Source: Corallococcus coralloides (lineage in GTDB: Bacteria > Myxococcota > Myxococcia > Myxococcales > Myxococcaceae). Taken from it: 64,000 bases of DNA. Numbering within the stretch: position 1 is the stretch's first letter; each line of letters starts with the position of its first letter. The stretch is from the NCBI RefSeq assembly GCF_044792175.1, contig NZ_CP172866.1; one strand, 5' to 3'. Both the position numbers and the translations under genes were made by a program. Below are positions 54,343 to 63,316 of the stretch, piece after piece. The notes below the pieces were generated by a model, which was not told the DNA's origin, ran no database searches, and worked only from the letters and a program-made list of their open reading frames with translations.

Positions 54343-55485
54343 ATGCGTCGCACGTCGCGCAACGTTGACAGTGAAACACCGGATGGTGTCTCGTGTTTCC
54401 AGATGGACGGTTCACGGCGCGTCACTGTTCTCTCCTTGCACCGGGGTTCCGCGAGCATCGTCCGCGCCCTGGTGCCCCACTTCGATCTGCCGCCGGCGGA
54501 GCTCGCCGCGAGGCTGTTCCGCGCCCCCGCGGTGCTGGCGTCGGGCCTGCCGGAGGACCTCGCCCGGGGCCTGTCGGAGGTGCTGGGCAACGCGGGCCTG
54601 CGCGTGGTCGTGGAGCCGGATGACGCGCCCCTTCCTCCTCCCGCCGGGCAGACCTACGACGTGGCGCTGTACGTGCGTGACGGCGGGCGCTTCCGCGAGG
54701 TCTGCGCGGAGCTGGCGGCCGTCCTGGGCTGTCCCCTGGCGGACGCCGCCTCGGCGCTCTGCGCCACGCCGCCCACGGTGGTCGGCTCCGTGTCCCAGGC
54801 CACGGTGGACGCGCTCCGGGAGCGCTTCGCCGCGCTGGGCGCGGAGGTGGACGCGAGCCATCCGCCCACCGCCCGCTATGACGTCTTCGCCACGGAAACG
54901 GTCAGCCTCGCGATGGTCCGCTCGGTGCTGGAGGCGCAGGGCGTGACTCCGGGCGAGCCGCCGCTGGTGGCCCGGGACCTCTCGCACGAGCAGGCGGAGC
55001 GCGTGTGGCGGGAGCTGGGAGCGCGGGGTGGGGTGCGGTTGTTGGATCACGCCTTCCAGCGCTTCGACGTCAGCCTCCTGGAGGCCCCCGCCGACGCCGG
55101 CTTCCCGGAGCTGCTGGTGCGGGAGACGGGCATGCCCCCGGCGCTGGTGCCGAAGGTGCTCAAGCGGCTGCCGGTGGTGCTGCACACGGGGCTGTCGCGC
55201 GTGGACGTGGTGGCGCGCACCGCGCCCCTGGAGGCCGCGGGCGCGAAGCTGGCCGTGCAGCTCATCAACTTCCGCAGCTTCCGCCTGACGGTGGAGGACT
55301 CGAAGGACCCCGCCGTGGCCGCGGAGCTGCTGTCTTCGGGGCTGGGGCTGCAAGCCAACGAGGCGCGCACCGCGCTCTCCCGGCTGCCGCATACCTTCCA
55401 GGCCACGGTGGGGGACACGCGCGCGCGCTGGCTCGTCGCGGAGCTGCGCGCGCGGGGCACGCGGACGTCGCTGGTGTCCCAGTGA
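54343..55485 (+). CDS. Protein composed of about five tandem ribosomal L7/L12 C-terminal-domain-like repeats
   Basis: Each roughly 70-aa unit aligns to the L7/L12 CTD segment [30 protein letters not shown]. Examples are APAVLASGLPEDLARGLSEVLGNAGLRVVVE, TPPTVVGSVSQATVDALRERFAALGAEVDA and MPPALVPKVLKRLPVVLHTGLSRVDVVARTAPLEAAGAKLAVQL. The start is uncertain (ATG 54343 or 54403). Confidence 0.55.
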   Translation: MRRTSRNVDSETPDGVSCFQMDGSRRVTVLSLHRGSASIVRALVPHFDLPPAELAARLFRAPAVLASGLPEDLARGLSEVLGNAGLRVVVEPDDAPLPPPAGQTYDVALYVRDGGRFREVCAELAAVLGCPLADAASALCATPPTVVGSVSQATVDALRERFAALGAEVDASHPPTARYDVFATETVSLAMVRSVLEAQGVTPGEPPLVARDLSHEQAERVWRELGARGGVRLLDHAFQRFDVSLLEAPADAGFPELLVRETGMPPALVPKVLKRLPVVLHTGLSRVDVVARTAPLEAAGAKLAVQLINFRSFRLTVEDSKDPAVAAELLSSGLGLQANEARTALSRLPHTFQATVGDTRARWLVAELRARGTRTSLVSQ

Positions 55486-56030
55486 GCTCGCTCGCGCTGC
55501 ACTTCCGCGTGGCGGAGCAGGGCAAGGTGTTCGCGCTGGCCGGCCGGCATGACGAGGCGCTGCGCCACTACCGGGAGGCGCTGCGGCTGGCCGCGCTCCA
55601 GGGCGGCTCCGACGTCTGCCAGCGCCACTATGCGTGGTGCGTGCTCGAGTCGCTGGAGCGCTCGGGGGCCCACGAGGCCGTCATCTCCTTCTGCCTGCGC
55701 GTGGAGGCCCACTACCAGCAGCAGCCTCCCACGAGCGACCTGGCCCGTCAGGACCTGGCCGCGCACCACGAGCGGCACGGCCTGGCGCTGGCGAAGCTGG
55801 GGCGCCTGGCCGAGGCGCGCACGCGGCTGGAGTCCGCGGTGGCGCTGGCCGGCGCCGGGCGGCTCCCGCTGTCGGAGCGGGTGCTGGGCTGGGCGCGCAC
55901 CGGACTGCACGTGGACGCGCGCCGCATCACGCTGGAGCAGGACCGTCACGCCTACTGGGTCGTCCGTCCCGACACCGTTCGTCCCGACATCGCCGTCGCA
56001 CTTCCTCCCGTCGCCGCACCCTTGGGGTAG
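55482..56030 (+). CDS. TPR-like helical protein
   Basis: The GTG start overlaps the upstream stop (GTGA). The protein has ALAGRHDEALRHYREALRLAALQG, a TPR-like motif. Confidence 0.5.
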   Translation: MSSLALHFRVAEQGKVFALAGRHDEALRHYREALRLAALQGGSDVCQRHYAWCVLESLERSGAHEAVISFCLRVEAHYQQQPPTSDLARQDLAAHHERHGLALAKLGRLAEARTRLESAVALAGAGRLPLSERVLGWARTGLHVDARRITLEQDRHAYWVVRPDTVRPDIAVALPPVAAPLG

Positions 56031-56033
56031 ACC

Positions 56034-58130
56034 ATGCCGAAAGCAGGGAAGATCCTCGCGGATCTCAACATCTCCGACTTCATCCGGGACATGGGGCTCG
56101 CCATCGCCGAGGCCCAGACCAAGCTGGACACCAACAGCGTGGATCAGACGCTGCGCATGGGGCAGACCGTCCTGCCGGGCATGACGCAGAACCTGCTGGC
56201 CCTGGGGTTGCGGCCGGCCTTCTACCACTTCCAGTACGCCGACCTGGAGGTGAACCTCAACGTCTACTACTCGACCACCATCGACGTGGGCGCCAACTTC
56301 AACTACGACAACGAGAACGAGTCGAGTGAGTACAGCCTCGAGACGTCCTCCGCCAGCGGCAGCGCCACCCTCACGGTGCAGGACGGCGAGGGCATTCCCC
56401 CCTACGCCTGTCTGGCGTTGGTGGCCAACGCGCCGGGCCACCTCACGGTGGGCACCACCAGCTACGCGCTGGACGGCGGCGTGGGCCCCAACAGCAGCGG
56501 CCTGCCCGTCACCCGCCAGGACACGCTGTGGGAGACGGCGCAGGAGCTGCTCGTGGCCCTGCGCAACAACTCCGTCTGGACGAACCAGGCCGCGGGGGAC
56601 CTGCAGGGCGTCTTCATGGACTGGGAGATGCAGTCGGGCGTCACCGCCAGCACCAACCGCCCGGACCTCTACGCCATCAACCGCTCGGTCATCACCGTGC
56701 GGACCTCGCCGCAGGCGGCGCCCGGCGACAACCTGGTCATCGCGCGGCTGGGCAGCGTGACGCCCGCGCCCGCGCTGCTGCTGCCGGCCACCAACGGCAC
56801 GCGCTACACCAGCACCGCGGCGACGGTGGGCGCGGCGCTGGCGGACATCGGGCAGCAGGTGGACCCGGCGGCCTTCGTCGTCGTCTCCGGCGCTGACTGC
56901 AACCGGGCCATCTACTTCGACACCGACGTCCACGACGTGCCCACCACCACCTACGGCACGGACCGCGAGCCCTCCGCCATCCTCGACGCGGTGGCGGCGC
57001 TGCTGGCGGAGCACCCGTCCGCCTCGCTGGACCTGGAGGGTTGGGCGGATCAGCGCACGCCGCCGGCCCCCGGCTACAACCAGCGCCTGTCGCAGCGGCG
57101 CGCGGACTTCGTCCTGCGGGCGCTGACGTCGCGGGGCGTGGCGGCCAGCAGGCTCAAGGCCCGGGGCATGGGCGCGACGGTCAGCTTCAGCAGCTCCGAC
57201 CTGGCGGCCAACCGGCGCGTCGTCTTCCAGTTCTCCGGCGTGCCCGCGTCGCTGGTGGCCCGCACCGGCGCGGCCACGGCCGCCTTCGACCCCACGGGGA
57301 CGGACCGGGAGGCCCGCATCGTGCCGCGCACGCGCGCCGCCGCGAACGCGCCCACCACGGCCGTCGTCACCTTCCGCGGCACGGACTTCACCCAGGGCAC
57401 CGCGTCCCAGGGCACCACCTTCGCGGTGGGCGCCACCGCGGAGTCCACCGCCGCCAACCTGGCCCGCGCCATCCGCGACGCCAACGCCAACACCGCCTTC
57501 GGCGCCTTCGCGCGCGGGGACCGCGTCTACCTGTACGGCACCGGTGACCACGCCCTGTTCACCCTGTTCGCGCGCACGCCCACCGCGCCGGCCCTGTCCG
57601 CGGCGGGCTCCATCCGCGTGGCCCGCCGCTTCGGTGACGGCCGCCCGCCGGCCTCGCCCCAGCCGCGCGACACCGTCGTCATCGACAACGTGCAGTTGGT
57701 GGCCGTGGAGGCAGGCGTCGCCCCGCAGCCGGGGCAGTTCACGCTGGGGGTGACGGCCGCGGACACGGCGCGCAACCTGGCCGCCGCCATCACGGCGGGC
57801 TCCAGCTCCGGCGTGCTGGCCGCGGGCCTCCAGGCCCAGTCCGCGGGCAACATCGTCACCGTCTCCGGCCCCTCCGGCACCATGCTGGGCACCAGCAACC
57901 CCGCCGCGTTCCTGCTGTCGGCCAACCGCATCGCCGGCAAGCCGTCCGCGGACCGCGAGGAGAGCTCCGAGCGCGAGCTGCGCGCCCTCAACGTGGATGC
58001 GCACGCTTCGGTGAAGTACGAGATGAGCGTGTCCGGCAGCTCGACCATCAAGGCCCGTCTGGTGGCGGTGCCCGCGCCGCCCCAGTTCCTCCAGGCCATC
58101 GGCGACTACCTCGAACGCTGGTACCCGTAA
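56034..58130 (+). CDS. Large member of a paralogous family (N-terminal ...AIAEAQ..LD motif) fused to an OmpA-like peptidoglycan-binding module
   Basis: The N-terminus reads ILADLNISDFIRDMGLAIAEAQTKLDTNSVDQ...LGLRPAFYHFQYADLEV, matching the family motifs. The middle reads LDLEGWADQRTPPAPGYNQRLSQRRADFVLRALTSRGVAASRLKARGMG, an OmpA C-terminal-like core. There is no signal peptide. Confidence 0.7.
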   Translation: MPKAGKILADLNISDFIRDMGLAIAEAQTKLDTNSVDQTLRMGQTVLPGMTQNLLALGLRPAFYHFQYADLEVNLNVYYSTTIDVGANFNYDNENESSEYSLETSSASGSATLTVQDGEGIPPYACLALVANAPGHLTVGTTSYALDGGVGPNSSGLPVTRQDTLWETAQELLVALRNNSVWTNQAAGDLQGVFMDWEMQSGVTASTNRPDLYAINRSVITVRTSPQAAPGDNLVIARLGSVTPAPALLLPATNGTRYTSTAATVGAALADIGQQVDPAAFVVVSGADCNRAIYFDTDVHDVPTTTYGTDREPSAILDAVAALLAEHPSASLDLEGWADQRTPPAPGYNQRLSQRRADFVLRALTSRGVAASRLKARGMGATVSFSSSDLAANRRVVFQFSGVPASLVARTGAATAAFDPTGTDREARIVPRTRAAANAPTTAVVTFRGTDFTQGTASQGTTFAVGATAESTAANLARAIRDANANTAFGAFARGDRVYLYGTGDHALFTLFARTPTAPALSAAGSIRVARRFGDGRPPASPQPRDTVVIDNVQLVAVEAGVAPQPGQFTLGVTAADTARNLAAAITAGSSSGVLAAGLQAQSAGNIVTVSGPSGTMLGTSNPAAFLLSANRIAGKPSADREESSERELRALNVDAHASVKYEMSVSGSSTIKARLVAVPAPPQFLQAIGDYLERWYP

Positions 58131-58139
58131 GGAGTCCCC

Positions 58140-58643
58140 ATGCCCGGAAACAACACCACGCAGGGCCAGCGCGCGATGATGACGGTGCTGGACGCGCCGC
58201 TGCCCGAGCTCATCGAGCGGCTCGGGCGCGCGGTGGCGGACGCGCAGCACGCGCTGGACGTCAACTCGCTGGACATCGCCAAGCGCATGTCCGAGCGCAC
58301 CGTGGACCTGGGCGACGGGCAGTTGTGGAGCCTGCTCGCGCTCGGCTTCACGCCCACGTTCTACGCCTTCGCCGAGGCCACGCTCGAGGCGAAGCTCACC
58401 TTCACCATCCGCGAGTCCACGGAGTTCTCCGTGGGCGGCGGCGCGACGGGCGGCATGGCCGGCATCTTCTCCGTGACGGTCAACGCCGAGTACAGCCGCA
58501 AGTACGGCTTCGAGGTGCAGGGCGCCAGCTCCATCGCCGCGCGGCTGGTGTCGCTGCCTCCGCCCGCGCGCCTGCACCAGTTGCTCAACGAGATCGCCGC
58601 CCAGCCGCCGCTCCCCGCGGCCTCCACCAATACCTCCGCCTGA
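58140..58643 (+). CDS. Paralogous family member (small)
   Basis: The protein has LIERLGRAVADAQHALDVNS...LGFTPTFYAFAEATLEAKL...SIAARLVSLPPPA. Confidence 0.6.
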   Translation: MPGNNTTQGQRAMMTVLDAPLPELIERLGRAVADAQHALDVNSLDIAKRMSERTVDLGDGQLWSLLALGFTPTFYAFAEATLEAKLTFTIRESTEFSVGGGATGGMAGIFSVTVNAEYSRKYGFEVQGASSIAARLVSLPPPARLHQLLNEIAAQPPLPAASTNTSA

Positions 58644-58665
58644 AGCGCGCAAGGATCCAGACACC

Positions 58666-59238
58666 ATGCCCAACGTCGGTCAGGAACTGCTGAACGTCCC
58701 CATGGGGGACATGATTCGTGAGATGGCGACCGCCATCGCGGAGGCGCAGCTCGAGCTGGACAAGAGCGGGATGCTCGTCGCGGAGATGATGAGCGGCGAG
58801 GCGCTGCTGCGGGACGCCGACGGGAACATCCAGCTCGACGGCTCCGGCAAGCCCATCCGGGTGGACACCAAGGTGTCCTTCGCGGGCACGCCCTCGTCCA
58901 TGATGGAGCTGGGCTTCGCGCCCAACTTCTACCAGTTCGTGGACACCATCATCGAGGTGAAGATCGCCATCAAGATGACGGAGAGCACGGAGAGCAAGGT
59001 GGCGACGCAGAGCACCTCGCGGACGGCCGGCGGGCTGCGCCTCTTCAAGCGCGGCGGCGCGCCCCAGGCCGTGGTGACGACCGTGGACGCCAGCTACACG
59101 CGCAAGTACGACTACAGCGTGGAGGGCTCCAGCCTGCTGCGCACCAAGCTGGTGCCGGTGCCTCCGCCGGCCCTCTTCGAGGAGCGGGTGCGCGCGCTCA
59201 TCGCGTCCAGGGCCGGCACCACGCCCACCACGAAGTAG
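58666..59238 (+). CDS. Paralogous family member
   Basis: The protein has LLNVPMGDMIREMATAIAEAQLELD...LGFAPNFYQFVDTIIEVKI...YSVEGSSLLRTKLVPVPPPA. Confidence 0.65.
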   Translation: MPNVGQELLNVPMGDMIREMATAIAEAQLELDKSGMLVAEMMSGEALLRDADGNIQLDGSGKPIRVDTKVSFAGTPSSMMELGFAPNFYQFVDTIIEVKIAIKMTESTESKVATQSTSRTAGGLRLFKRGGAPQAVVTTVDASYTRKYDYSVEGSSLLRTKLVPVPPPALFEERVRALIASRAGTTPTTK

Positions 59239-59256
59239 CCCGGGAGAGCGCGCACC

Positions 59257-59847
59257 ATGCCTACCAACTCCATTGGTCAGGATCTGCTCAACGTCCCCTT
59301 CGGGGAGATGGTCCGCAACCTGGGCAACGCCATCGCGGATGCCCAGTACGCCCTGGACAGCTCCTCGCTGAAGATCGCCCAGCTCATGGCGGGCTACCGC
59401 ATCGACGACAGCGGCAACGCCGTGCGGGACGGGGCCGGCTTCGTGAAGCTGGGGACCACCGAGTACCCGCTGCTCCTGCTCGGCTTCACGCCCACGTTCT
59501 ACCAGTTCGTGGAGACCATCATCGAAGTGAAGATGGAGATCTCCATGCACGAGTCCACCGATGACTCGACCCAGACGCGCGACCGCAAGGTGGACCGCGA
59601 CAAGGGCATCCTCACCACGCTGGTGAAGGGCCACAAGAGCCACGTCACCACCGTCACGGCCAAGCACTCGCAGAAGTACAGCTATTCCGCCGAGGGCTCG
59701 AGCCTCATCCGCACCAAGCTGGTGCCCATTCCCCCTCCGGCGGCGCTCCAGCAGATCTGCGCGGAGATCGCCAAGGGCCTCAAGGGCACCGCGGAGGGCG
59801 AGGCCGTCAGCGGGAAGATCGACACCGCCGTGGGCAACGTCACCTGA
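59257..59847 (+). CDS. Paralogous family member
   Basis: The protein has LLNVPFGEMVRNLGNAIADAQYALD...LGFTPTFYQFVETIIEVKM...YSAEGSSLIRTKLVPIPPPA. It is about 40% identical to the preceding gene product. Confidence 0.65.
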   Translation: MPTNSIGQDLLNVPFGEMVRNLGNAIADAQYALDSSSLKIAQLMAGYRIDDSGNAVRDGAGFVKLGTTEYPLLLLGFTPTFYQFVETIIEVKMEISMHESTDDSTQTRDRKVDRDKGILTTLVKGHKSHVTTVTAKHSQKYSYSAEGSSLIRTKLVPIPPPAALQQICAEIAKGLKGTAEGEAVSGKIDTAVGNVT

Positions 59848-59865: not shown

Positions 59866-60804
59866 ATGTCACACGTCCGTTGGGAAGACCTGCTGGAGGA
59901 GGACGCCGCCGGGGCCTCCGACGCCGCTGGCGCGTCCGCTCCTGCTCCAGGAGCGGACACGCCCGTGCCGTCGCTGGAGCAGGTGGCCGCCAGCGACCCG
60001 GAGCTGGCGGCGCTGCTGAAGGAGCGCCGGCAGCTCGAAGACACGATGAAGGCGCTGAGCGGCGTGCAGGAGGCGCCCGTGGACGAGCGGCTGGCGAAGC
60101 AGTTCCCCGTCGTCCAGCACACGCCGGAGTCGCGCATCGCGGAGCGCAAGCAGCACGAGCGGGACACCGCGCGGCGGCTGCTGGAGCAGAAGCTGTACGC
60201 CCGGCGCCGGACGGAGGCGGAGGAGGCCGAGCGGGTGGAGGAGCTGCGCCGCGAGCGCCTGCAGGCGGGGAAGGCGGCCCGGCGTCAGGCGCAGAAGCAG
60301 CAGACGCTGCGCCAGCAGTGGGCGCGCAAGGCGCGTGAGCGCGCGAAGCTGGCCACGCGGCTGGCGGAGCGCGCCCTGGAGTCCCCGGGCCGGGGCCGCA
60401 TGAAGCTGGGGGAGCTGGGGTCCGCGACCCGGCGGTTGGCGGACGCGGCGGAGGAGGCGCGCTCGGTGGCGCGCAGGCCCCTCGCGCTGGAGAAGGGCCA
60501 GACGCTGCCCTCGCTCGGGCAGGTGGGCCGGGCCCTGGGGGGACGCGGCGGGCTCACGATAGGGAAGGTGGAGAAGGGGGTGGCGGTGGCGCGCGAGCTT
60601 CGGGGGATGGATCCCCGCTCGCTGGACACCGAGGCCCTGATGATGCGCGGACTGGCGATGGCCGGCATGGACATGGAGTCCATGGAGCAGCAGATGGACA
60701 TGGAGATGGAGCGCGCCGGCATGGGCATGGACGACATGGACGCGCGCGACACGGCACGTGACGCGCGGCGGGAACGCGGGCGCCAGGGAGCGCGGGATGA
60801 GTGA
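59866..60804 (+). CDS. Glu/Arg/Ala-rich coiled-coil protein with Met/Asp-rich C-terminal tail
   Basis: The protein has charged heptads (ERRQLEDTMKAL..., RRRTEAEEAERVEELRRERLQAGKAARRQAQKQQ). The tail reads MDMESMEQQMDMEMERAGMGMDDMDARD. Its stop overlaps the next start. Confidence 0.5.
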   Translation: MSHVRWEDLLEEDAAGASDAAGASAPAPGADTPVPSLEQVAASDPELAALLKERRQLEDTMKALSGVQEAPVDERLAKQFPVVQHTPESRIAERKQHERDTARRLLEQKLYARRRTEAEEAERVEELRRERLQAGKAARRQAQKQQTLRQQWARKARERAKLATRLAERALESPGRGRMKLGELGSATRRLADAAEEARSVARRPLALEKGQTLPSLGQVGRALGGRGGLTIGKVEKGVAVARELRGMDPRSLDTEALMMRGLAMAGMDMESMEQQMDMEMERAGMGMDDMDARDTARDARRERGRQGARDE

Positions 60805-61462
60805 CACGACACAGCAGGCGCAGGAGTTGTTCGGCACGCTGGACGAGTACCTGCTCGAGCTGGCCGACGGCCTGGCGAAGGCCCAGCAGGAGCTGGGGGG
60901 CATCTCCGCGGCGGGCGCGCCCGGCCGGCAGTTCACCTACTACGTGCCGAAGCTGGAGTTCGAGCTGCGCATGGACCTGCGGGTGGAGACGTCCACCACC
61001 ACCACCGGACCGGTGGCCAACGGGAAGATATTGAAGATGCGGCCCGTGCGGCTGGCGGACGTGGCCTCTTCGCAGACGAAGACGGAGATCGTCAGCGTGA
61101 TCCGCGGCAGCTTCGTCGCGGTGCCGGCCAACGAGGGCCTGCCTCCGGTGGTGCTGGACGCCCGCTGCGTCATCGGCGACGGGGGCGTGCCGGGCGTGGT
61201 GGTGCGCGTGCGCAACGCTGCGGGCGAGGCCCTGCCGGGCGTGGAGGTGGAGTTCAACCTGGACCGCAGGACGACGCAGTCGCTGTCCGGCGTGGCGCCG
61301 CTCGCGGGCACGGACGTGGTGCTCGCGGTGGTGAGGACGGACGCGGCGGGGGAGGCGCGGACGACGCTGCGCGTGGCGGCCGGCGAGCAGGCCCGCATCC
61401 TGGCGCTCACGGTGGACGCCGCGTCGCGGACGCTGGCGCTGTCCTGTGAGGTGGCTCGATGA
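60797..61462 (+). CDS. Family-related protein (N-terminal ...LAKAQQEL motif) with transthyretin/CarboxypepD_reg-like beta-sandwich domain
   Basis: The protein has MSDTTQQAQELFGTLDEYLLELADGLAKAQQELGG...YYVPKLEFELRM. The C-terminal half reads GVVVRVRNAAGEALPGVEVEF...RTDAAGEA. Confidence 0.55.
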   Translation: MSDTTQQAQELFGTLDEYLLELADGLAKAQQELGGISAAGAPGRQFTYYVPKLEFELRMDLRVETSTTTTGPVANGKILKMRPVRLADVASSQTKTEIVSVIRGSFVAVPANEGLPPVVLDARCVIGDGGVPGVVVRVRNAAGEALPGVEVEFNLDRRTTQSLSGVAPLAGTDVVLAVVRTDAAGEARTTLRVAAGEQARILALTVDAASRTLALSCEVAR

Positions 61463-62190
61463 AGGTCCGGGCCGTGTTCCACAAGGCCACGGGAGTCCCC
61501 GTGGCGGGAATGAAGGTGGCGTGGTGGGTCCCCGCGAAGACGGGCACCTTCGAGCTGCGCGACACCGGGGTGACGAACGAGGCGGGCGTGCTGGAGATGG
61601 AGGTCAGCAGCGCCACCTTCGGCTCCCACCTCCGGCTGGGCTCCGCCGGGGTGGCCACCTTCCCGGTGAAGATGAGCAGCACCCTCATCGACTACGGGAC
61701 GATGGTCGTCCTGGAGCCCGCGAGGGAGGACGTGCGCGCCGTGTCCTCCGCCGCGGTGGAGCCCACCCAGGAGCCCGCCCTGGAGCAGGGCACGTCCCTG
61801 GTGCTGTCCGACAAGCTGAAGTCGGCGGGCCAGCAGATCGAAGCGGTGCGCGCGTCGCTGACGACGGTGCGGTTGAGCACCGTCCGCGTGCGGTGGATGG
61901 AGACGACGCCCGAGGGCGTGACGGAGGCGGAGGCCCAGTTCGTGGAGCAGTCTCCCGCCGCGCCCGAGACGGGCGACGCGCCCGCCCGCGAGGTGCCGGA
62001 CTTCCGGGGGCTGACGGCCTCGGCGGCCCGGCGGCGCGCGGCGGAGTCGGGGCTGCGGGTGGACCCGATGCCGCTCTTCGTCAAGGAGCCCGGGCAGTGG
62101 GGCCGCGTGCTGCGGCAGGTGCCGGAGCCGGGCAAGCCGCTCGCTTCGGGCCCCGTGCAGTTGATCATTGGCCAGGCGATGGAGGGCTGA
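61459..62190 (+). CDS. Beta-sandwich (CarboxypepD_reg-like) + PASTA-like domain protein
   Basis: The ATG overlaps the upstream stop (ATGA). The N-terminus reads GVPVAGMKVAWWVPAKTGTFELRDTGVTNEAGVLEMEV. The C-terminus reads VPDFRGLTASAARRRAAESGLRV...GRVLRQVPEPGKPLASGPVQLIIG, a PASTA-like topology. Confidence 0.55.
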   Translation: MKVRAVFHKATGVPVAGMKVAWWVPAKTGTFELRDTGVTNEAGVLEMEVSSATFGSHLRLGSAGVATFPVKMSSTLIDYGTMVVLEPAREDVRAVSSAAVEPTQEPALEQGTSLVLSDKLKSAGQQIEAVRASLTTVRLSTVRVRWMETTPEGVTEAEAQFVEQSPAAPETGDAPAREVPDFRGLTASAARRRAAESGLRVDPMPLFVKEPGQWGRVLRQVPEPGKPLASGPVQLIIGQAMEG

Positions 62191-62193
62191 ACC

Positions 62194-62862
62194 ATGGCGG
62201 ATTCGAATGACGTCCCCCAGTTGGAGGCGCTGAGCGCGCCGCTGGGCGCGTTGATCTCCTCGGTGGGCCGCGGCGTGGCGGAGGCGCAGCGGGAGCTGGA
62301 CGCGGCGACCATCGAGCGGATCCGCGAGCTCTACGCCTCGGACGAGGACCTGGCGGTGGAGCTGCAGCGCATCGGCTACCGACCGACCTGGTACCACATC
62401 CCCGAGGCCGAGGCGGAGATCGCCGTGGCGCTGTCCATCACCTCGGAGGAGCGGACGCAGGGGCGCACGCGCCTGAAGATGTACGGCGCGCCCCTGGACG
62501 CCAGCTACACCAACCGCTTCGCCTACAGCCTGACGGCGCAGTCGCGGCTGAAGTTCCGCGTGGTACCGGTGCCTCCCTCGCCCCAGGCGGAGGCGCTGGT
62601 GGTGGTGCCGGCGGTGGTGGGGAAGACGGTGGGGGACGCGCGGGCGCTGCTGTCCGCCATCGGCGTGCCCCACCGGTTCCCCAGCGGCGCGGCGGACGCC
62701 GCCCTGGTCCTCTCGGCCTCGGCCGAGCCGGGGACGCTGCTGCCGCGCGGCACCGAGTTGGTGCTCACCGTGCAGACGACCGGCGGAGGGAAGCTCCCGC
62801 CCACCGGAGTCCTCACCCGCTCGCCCGTCCTGGAGACCGTGGCCGCCGAGCCCTTGAAGTGA
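62194..62862 (+). CDS. Paralogous family member fused to C-terminal PASTA-like domain
   Basis: The protein has LGALISSVGRGVAEAQRELD...IGYRPTWYHIPEAEAEI...YSLTAQSRLKFRVVPVPPSP. It then has VVPAVVGKTVGDARALLSAIGVPH...PGTLLPRGTELVLTV. Confidence 0.6.
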   Translation: MADSNDVPQLEALSAPLGALISSVGRGVAEAQRELDAATIERIRELYASDEDLAVELQRIGYRPTWYHIPEAEAEIAVALSITSEERTQGRTRLKMYGAPLDASYTNRFAYSLTAQSRLKFRVVPVPPSPQAEALVVVPAVVGKTVGDARALLSAIGVPHRFPSGAADAALVLSASAEPGTLLPRGTELVLTVQTTGGGKLPPTGVLTRSPVLETVAAEPLK

Positions 62863-62881
62863 ACGGACGGTCCGTGCCGCG

Positions 62882-63316
62882 ATGGAGGCCCCTGGCGCGA
62901 TGAGTGACGCCATCGACCTGGAGGCCCTGCTGGTGGACCTGCGTGAGTCGCTCGCGCGGGTCCAGGCGCGGCTCGGCGCCGGCCCCATCGTGCTGGGGCC
63001 GGTGGAGCTGGAGCTGCACGGCGCGGTCACCGCGGACGGGACGGGGATGCACTTCACCCCCGGAGGCCCCGGCGAGGTGCGGGCCGTGTTCGTCCAGCAG
63101 GGCCCCGAGGCGGCACCGCCCCCCGCGCCGGAGCTGCTGGGCCTGACGCGGAGCGCCGCCGTGCGCAAGGCCCGCCTGGCCGGAGCCTCGCTGGAGGTGA
63201 CGGACGTGCCCTGCCTGTCGCCGGAGCAGGCGGGGCGGGTGTGCTGGCAGCGCCCCGCGGCCGGAGCGCCCCTGACGGAGGGTCACATCGCGGTGGGACT
63301 GTACGTTACCGGCTGA
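62882..63316 (+). CDS. Small protein with N-terminal helix and C-terminal PASTA-like domain
   Basis: The protein has DLEALLVDLRESLARVQARL. It then has PELLGLTRSAAVRKARLAGASLEVTDV...GRVCWQRPAAGAPLTEGHIAVGLYV. The start is ambiguous (62882 or 62900). Confidence 0.45.
   Translation: MEAPGAMSDAIDLEALLVDLRESLARVQARLGAGPIVLGPVELELHGAVTADGTGMHFTPGGPGEVRAVFVQQGPEAAPPPAPELLGLTRSAAVRKARLAGASLEVTDVPCLSPEQAGRVCWQRPAAGAPLTEGHIAVGLYVTG

Follow-up and report, generated by a model that had tools for sequence, protein, structure and literature searches.

Introduction

To our knowledge, the C-terminal domain (CTD) of ribosomal protein L7/L12 is known almost exclusively as the factor-recruiting module of the ribosome. 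Residues K65, R73 and K84 are reportedly among those by which L12 binds the factors. The full protein, bL12, is an acidic ribosomal protein, and the residues that contact EF-G and other factors (V66-V68, K70, L80 and E82) are located on helices 1-2 of the CTD (PMC5887453). ClpS, the N-degron adaptor of ClpAP, belongs to the same ClpS/L12 fold superfamily. Class II chaperones of type III secretion (T3SS) translocators, such as SycD, IpgC and PcrH, are TPR proteins. Outside the ribosome, L12/ClpS domains also serve as interaction modules within the vWA proteins of conflict systems in bacteria (Kaur, Burroughs, Iyer, Aravind 2020, eLife; PMC7159879). In addition, the Pepco proteins (Trypco1/Trypco2) are pre-assembled beta-barrel pore toxins (Evans et al. 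2025, bioRxiv 10.1101/2025.11.14.688446).

We analysed a gene in a stretch of 64,000 nucleotides from Corallococcus coralloides (assembly GCF_044792175.1, contig NZ_CP172866.1; hereafter the window), the product of which, designated L12x5, is a protein of five L7/L12-CTD-like repeats encoded at the head of a conserved cassette. Searches of the literature on PF00542, on non-ribosomal L12 domains and on this gene combination found no account of the family or the cassette.

Results

The maximal ORF for L12x5 extends over 54343-55485 on the + strand and ends with a TGA at 55483-55485. The start at 54343 was rejected, because an alignment indicated that most homologues begin at the Met matching ATG 54403, which results in a protein of 360 aa; the segment 54343-54402 is lower in GC and contains a small hairpin. 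The NCBI start, which results in a 349-aa protein, was also rejected, because strand beta-1 of repeat 1 would be lost. The frame had a GC3 of 0.88 and the homologues were 23 to 100% identical to the protein, indicating that gene 1 is a genuine gene. A simple promoter and terminator scan found neither a sigma-70 consensus upstream nor a terminator downstream. The product is near-neutral, with a pI of 6.2.

A first-pass annotation of the window had read this protein as five tandem L7/L12-CTD-like repeats, and this reading was borne out by sequence profiles, a confident structure model and fold searches. The PF00542 search that it had proposed gave a significant match on repeat 2 (29.3 bits, with the gathering cut-off at 25.9, and E=1.1e-6; the 360-aa form scored 29.8 bits), placing the protein in the family at the level of the domain, and 18 of 19 homologues also matched PF00542 (E<=0.1). 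The comparison that it had quoted, of APAVLASGLPEDLARGLSEVLGNAGLRVVVE with a 30-residue stretch, was reproduced by HMMER. Furthermore, repeats 1 and 4 of the family profile matched PDB chains of the E. coli L7/L12 CTD, with E=6e-4 to 1e-3. The bounds of the five repeats, determined by alignment, are given in Table 1 together with the other features of the locus. Repeats 1 to 5 were 27, 24, 22, 30 and 16% identical to the E. coli L12 CTD, respectively, and 17-29% identical to one another. When sub-alignments of the individual repeats were compared by hhalign with the E. coli CTD and with shuffled CTD sequences as the control, repeats 1, 2 and 4 scored 44.3, 40.8 and 42.5, respectively, versus a maximum of 13.3 for the shuffled CTD, so that each of these repeats is individually recognisable as an L12 CTD (95-96% in hhalign).

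The remaining two repeats are more divergent. Repeat 5 was marginal against L12 itself (20.1 versus 15.6 for shuffles) and was tied to repeats 1, 2 and 4 at 94-97.5% probability by hhalign. Repeat 3 was not significant against L12 (12.8 versus 10.6 for shuffles), has an 8-residue gap in a six-way alignment and shows a weak sequence link of 75% to repeat 1; its assignment as an L12-like copy rests on its position, on this link and on the predicted structure. The L12-like features that are conserved include an A-P motif ahead of beta-2, a Gly ahead of beta-3 and the hydrophobic positions in helix 3. Repeat 2 has the highest mean conservation of the five and carries the motif VLGxVSxATVxALRxR, a conserved FQRFD junction motif precedes repeat 4, and S131, T134, R141, W202, R220 and R342 are conserved residues.

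Table 1. Position and basis of assignment of gene 1, its repeats and the other cassette genes in the window
Feature	Position	Strand	Basis
Gene 1, five-repeat L12-CTD-like protein (360 aa)	54403..55485	+	ORF; start from homologue N-termini and model strand beta-1
Repeat 1 (aa 5-72)	54415..54618	+	beta-alpha-alpha-beta-alpha-beta; hhalign vs E. coli L12 CTD 96.3%, E=1.9e-9; PDB profile match 1ctf
Repeat 1 model elements			E5-11, H18-26, H31-39, E43-49, H51-63, E67-72
Repeat 2 (aa 84-152)	54652..54858	+	best PF00542 stretch; hhalign vs L12 95.3%
Repeat 3 (aa 158-217), degenerate	54874..55053	+	without second helix; model beta-alpha-beta-alpha-beta
Repeat 4 (aa 219-288)	55057..55266	+	PDB profile matches to E. 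coli L7/L12 CTD over 222-286; hhalign vs L12 96.1%
Repeat 5 (aa 291-359)	55273..55479	+	hhalign R4-R5 97.5%, R1-R5 96.0%; model beta-alpha-alpha-beta-alpha-beta
Gene 2, TPR protein (182 aa)	55482..56030	+	TPR_12 32.2 bits, above cut-off; GTG start
Gene 3 (698 aa)	56034..58130	+	OmpA 43.4 bits
Genes 4-6, small paralogues (167, 190, 196 aa)	58140..59847	+	alignment; no Pfam family
Gene 7, charged low-complexity protein (312 aa)	59866..60804	+	ORF; no family match
Genes 8-11, Ig-like and PASTA-domain proteins	60797..63316	+	PASTA 30.7 and 31.8 bits, above cut-off; Big_1 sub-threshold

The structure model (pLDDT 90.8, pTM 0.83), another check that had been proposed, showed the repeats folded as the alpha/beta unit of the L12 CTD, superposable on solved L12 CTDs: repeats 1, 2, 4 and 5 form beta-alpha-alpha-beta-alpha-beta units, and repeat 3 lacks the second helix. 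With the significant PF00542 match and this model, neither of the two outcomes that the first-pass annotation had named as refuting its reading occurred. By profile and fold searches, the best PDB match in both sequence and structure was the L12 CTD, and the fold searches found no multi-domain counterpart in the PDB. The five domains are predicted to pack as one rigid body joined by short linkers, not by flexible hinges.

As for the ribosomal equivalog model TIGR00855, the score was 23.9 bits versus a cut-off of 84.4, and the match was limited to model positions 75-123 of 125. The L12 N-terminal domain for dimerisation and L10 binding is absent, as is the hinge, with repeat 1 beginning at residue 5, and L12x5 is therefore not a protein of the ribosomal stalk. 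The locus is not an rplKAJL-rpoBC neighbourhood; upstream of gene 1 are genes for a DUF4142 protein and a Ser/Thr kinase, and downstream are TPR, OmpA and PASTA genes. Taken together, the gene 1 product is a non-ribosomal protein of five L7/L12-CTD-like repeats.

Residue counts at aligned positions in 48 family members indicated that the L12 factor-contact positions are replaced in every repeat. The K65 position is occupied by S/G, R/K, T/N or P, the V66 position by P, or by E in repeat 5, and the R73 position by A/V/S; the L80, E82 and K84 positions are variable, and K/R at the K70 position was found in 20 of the 48 sequences, in repeat 1 only. Conservation in the repeats falls on the structural core, not on the factor-contact positions.

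The conserved order of the cassette, which consists of 10-11 genes, is L12x5, a TPR protein, a large protein often with OmpA, three small paralogues and Ig-like/PASTA proteins. Gene 1 ends and gene 2 starts within the same GTGA; a 4-nt overlap of these genes was also found in four loci elsewhere (L001, L009, L010 and L012), and the two are a few bases apart in the other loci shown. Intergenic gaps across the operon range from -8 to +22 nt. Gene 3 is similar to the small paralogues in its N- and C-terminal parts and has an OmpA-like peptidoglycan-binding domain inserted; the profile of the small paralogues matched the counterparts of gene 3 in other loci. The small paralogues have more than 1700 homologues across phyla, at about 50% identity, and are modelled as a long helix followed by a very long beta-hairpin, with 5-6 such beta-hairpin paralogues per cassette. 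Their profile had no match among PDB sequences, and Foldseek returned for the model only non-significant matches (E>0.08). At the position of gene 7, a gene of similar size is present in other loci.

Neither a transmembrane segment nor a signal peptide was found in any of the 11 cassette proteins, and this supports a cytoplasmic location of L12x5. Searches of known anti-phage systems (PADLOC-DB 2.0) and PHROGs gave no meaningful match among ten cassette proteins. A phage origin is unsupported, since no relative of L12x5 or of the small paralogue was found in GenBank phages (tblastn) or in IMG/VR (pattern scan); a plasmid search gave a single distant match.

Homologues of L12x5 were found in 435 clusters, and 231 clusters at 50% identity reached E<=1e-30. 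Among the 150 clusters listed, nearly all members are 350-400 aa long and align end to end; the five-domain architecture is fixed and under selection. The family is conserved in at least three phyla, a wider distribution that was pieced together from cluster and contig look-ups; a related-locus search with an alignment of homologues found only six loci, five from Myxococcota and one from a MAG labelled Enterobacteriaceae. In all ten loci inspected, from Myxococcota, Bacteroidota, Gamma- and Alphaproteobacteria, L12x5 is the first gene of the cassette, so that synteny confirms the earlier reading that it opens a novel operon. The same gene order was found in Archangium, a Flavobacteriales MAG, another MAG, Halomonas alkalicola, Pleionea sediminis, an alphaproteobacterial MAG and a Cytophagales contig. 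A variant order in one locus (L013), where genes for 1092-aa and 190-aa proteins lie between the L12x5 and TPR genes, indicates that the pair is not always adjacent. When loci were found from the side of the small paralogue, the first gene was a full-length L12x5 member in five of five, with E values from 1e-68 to 1e-122.

Discussion

L12x5 shares with the bL12 CTD (PF00542; PDB 1ctf) its fold and topology; each repeat is 16-30% identical to that domain, and the A-P motif, the Gly and the hydrophobic core are conserved. It differs from bL12 in consisting of five tandem copies without the N-terminal domain and hinge, in not keeping the factor-binding residues, in being encoded in a non-ribosomal cassette and in its near-neutral pI, whereas bL12 is acidic (PMC5887453). 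The beta-propeller vWA-MoxR systems (PMC7159879) are comparable in that L12/ClpS domains act off the ribosome in multi-gene systems that also have a TPR component. However, their domain is an insertion in a large vWA protein that accompanies MoxR ATPases, whereas L12x5 is a stand-alone five-domain chain in a cassette without vWA, MoxR or NTPase.

We propose that L12x5 descends from the bL12 CTD but acts in the cytoplasm apart from the ribosome, where, with its TPR partner, it would serve the cassette as a multivalent protein-binding scaffold or as an assembly chaperone, a proposal that we regard as evenly balanced between right and wrong. An ancient five-fold tandem duplication of the bL12 CTD would have given rise to a single rigid body of 360 aa. 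L12x5 and the small TPR protein would be made together from overlapping genes, as the head of a tightly packed cassette, the rest of which would supply 5-6 paralogues of the long helix and long beta-hairpin type, some fused to OmpA, PASTA or Ig-like domains. Each L12/ClpS-fold unit may act as a protein- or peptide-binding module, as the fold does in bL12 and ClpS, and L12x5 and its partner may keep hold of the beta-hairpin subunits, put them in order or license them ahead of assembly. The scaffold or chaperone role, the binding partners and the task of the cassette are what we infer; the homology of the domains, their modelled fold, the constant five-domain architecture, the synteny, the overlap of genes 1 and 2, the loss of the factor-binding residues and the lack of export signals are what the data show. 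A parallel is offered by the class II chaperones of T3SS, since here, too, the gene of a TPR protein of about 180 aa lies beside genes for predicted beta-hairpin, pore-like oligomers; by analogy, the products of genes 1 and 2 may work on the principle of a holding chaperone. The cassette has no T3SS genes, and T3SS has no L12x5 equivalent.

It is just as possible that L12x5 is itself a structural part of the final assembly and not its chaperone. In the form of a building block, for example a base or cap, of a particle, ring or pore made by the cassette, this is rather unlikely in our estimate. Such a role would be in line with the strict co-occurrence and first position of L12x5 in the cassette, with its rigid and compact model and with the high conservation of the small paralogues, as is expected of structural proteins, but the data do not separate it from the role of chaperone or scaffold, and the PDB offers no multi-domain counterpart for comparison.

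A broader reading, which we consider unlikely, is that the cassette encodes an undescribed machine, in which the 5-6 subunits, each an amphipathic helix with a long beta-hairpin, would form a large hetero-oligomeric beta-barrel or ring with L12x5 and the TPR protein as the dedicated gatekeeper in the cytoplasm. Several subunits would carry peptidoglycan-binding or Ig-like domains, yet without export signals, and the product might act in suicide or defence as a pore like that of Pepco, or bind cell walls as a particle set free by lysis. As the gatekeeper, L12x5 might provide one L12-fold domain per subunit and keep the subunits inactive until a trigger; such one-to-one matching is numerology, because there are 5-6 paralogues per cassette, not strictly five. 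The neighbouring cassette genes and Pepco both have an amphipathic N-terminal helix followed by beta-hairpins, and the small-paralogue model weakly resembles the long hairpins of pore- and ring-forming proteins. Trypco2 (PF19631) scored 19.5 bits in the last cassette gene, and 18.4 bits in that of a second genome, both below the cut-off of 24.2, and had no match in 45 small paralogues. A homologue search with 62882-63316 found close orthologues only and no bridge to Trypco2/Pepco. The cassette modules are also bigger than Pepco (150-300 aa versus 117 aa), and a peptidase domain is absent from all cassettes, so that there is no Pepco-type adjacent trypsin-like or cysteine protease.

The first-pass annotation had suggested that L12-CTD mimics in this protein could bind translational GTPases or, alternatively, that the protein could act as a scaffold. 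As a multivalent mimic of the stalk cluster, L12x5 would bind EF-G, EF-Tu, IF2 and RF3, and would thus sequester these GTPases or sense the status of translation and couple it to the cassette. Its true homology to the factor-binding domain of bL12, its several copies, as in the stalk, and the recruitment of L12/ClpS domains into conflict systems (PMC7159879) are in keeping with this possibility, but in no repeat are the factor-contact positions conserved across the 48 members, a rigid packing of the domains with short linkers is predicted (pTM 0.83), unlike that of hinge-tethered CTDs, and the cassette contains no translation-related gene. We regard it as quite improbable, and because the factor-binding residues are lost, a scaffold is likelier than a factor mimic. 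Thus, the earlier interpretation holds with respect to the repeat structure and the first position in the operon and is not supported with respect to GTPase binding, and the scaffold that it had offered as an alternative fits the evidence better.

It is highly improbable that L12x5 is a ClpS-like adaptor, the domains of which would bind N-terminal degrons or peptides and pass substrates to a Clp-type unfoldase or protease. Its likeness to ClpS is at the level of the fold only, there is no detectable sequence similarity (hhalign 0.1-12.7% over the five repeats, with a ClpS sequence entered by hand, versus 95-96% for L12), and no AAA+ unfoldase or protease gene is present in any cassette inspected, nor a Clp gene nearby; this reading was rejected for the lack of sequence similarity and of a Clp partner. 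Chance similarity or a non-coding ORF is a negligible prospect, even though high-GC genomes yield many long spurious ORFs and repeat 3 alone is not significant, being refuted by the GC3, the 435 clusters, the Pfam score above the cut-off, the shuffle controls, the confident model and the cross-phylum synteny.

One JGI family member carries the name 'ribosomal protein L7/L12'; this label should be corrected, as should the NCBI starts that truncate repeat 1. L12x5 represents a family in which the L12 domain has been moved off the ribosome and multiplied five-fold, with a predicted rigid packing and with the factor-binding surface discarded. Members of this family are encoded at the head of a widespread cassette that is completely unannotated and in which domains that bind the cell wall occur in proteins without export signals. 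Knowing what L12x5 and the TPR protein bind would lead directly to the function of this cassette. If the cassette were indeed a machine with L12x5 and the TPR protein as its gatekeeper, the L12 domain of the ribosome would have gained a new function, and the cassette would represent a pore or ring system of a new class.

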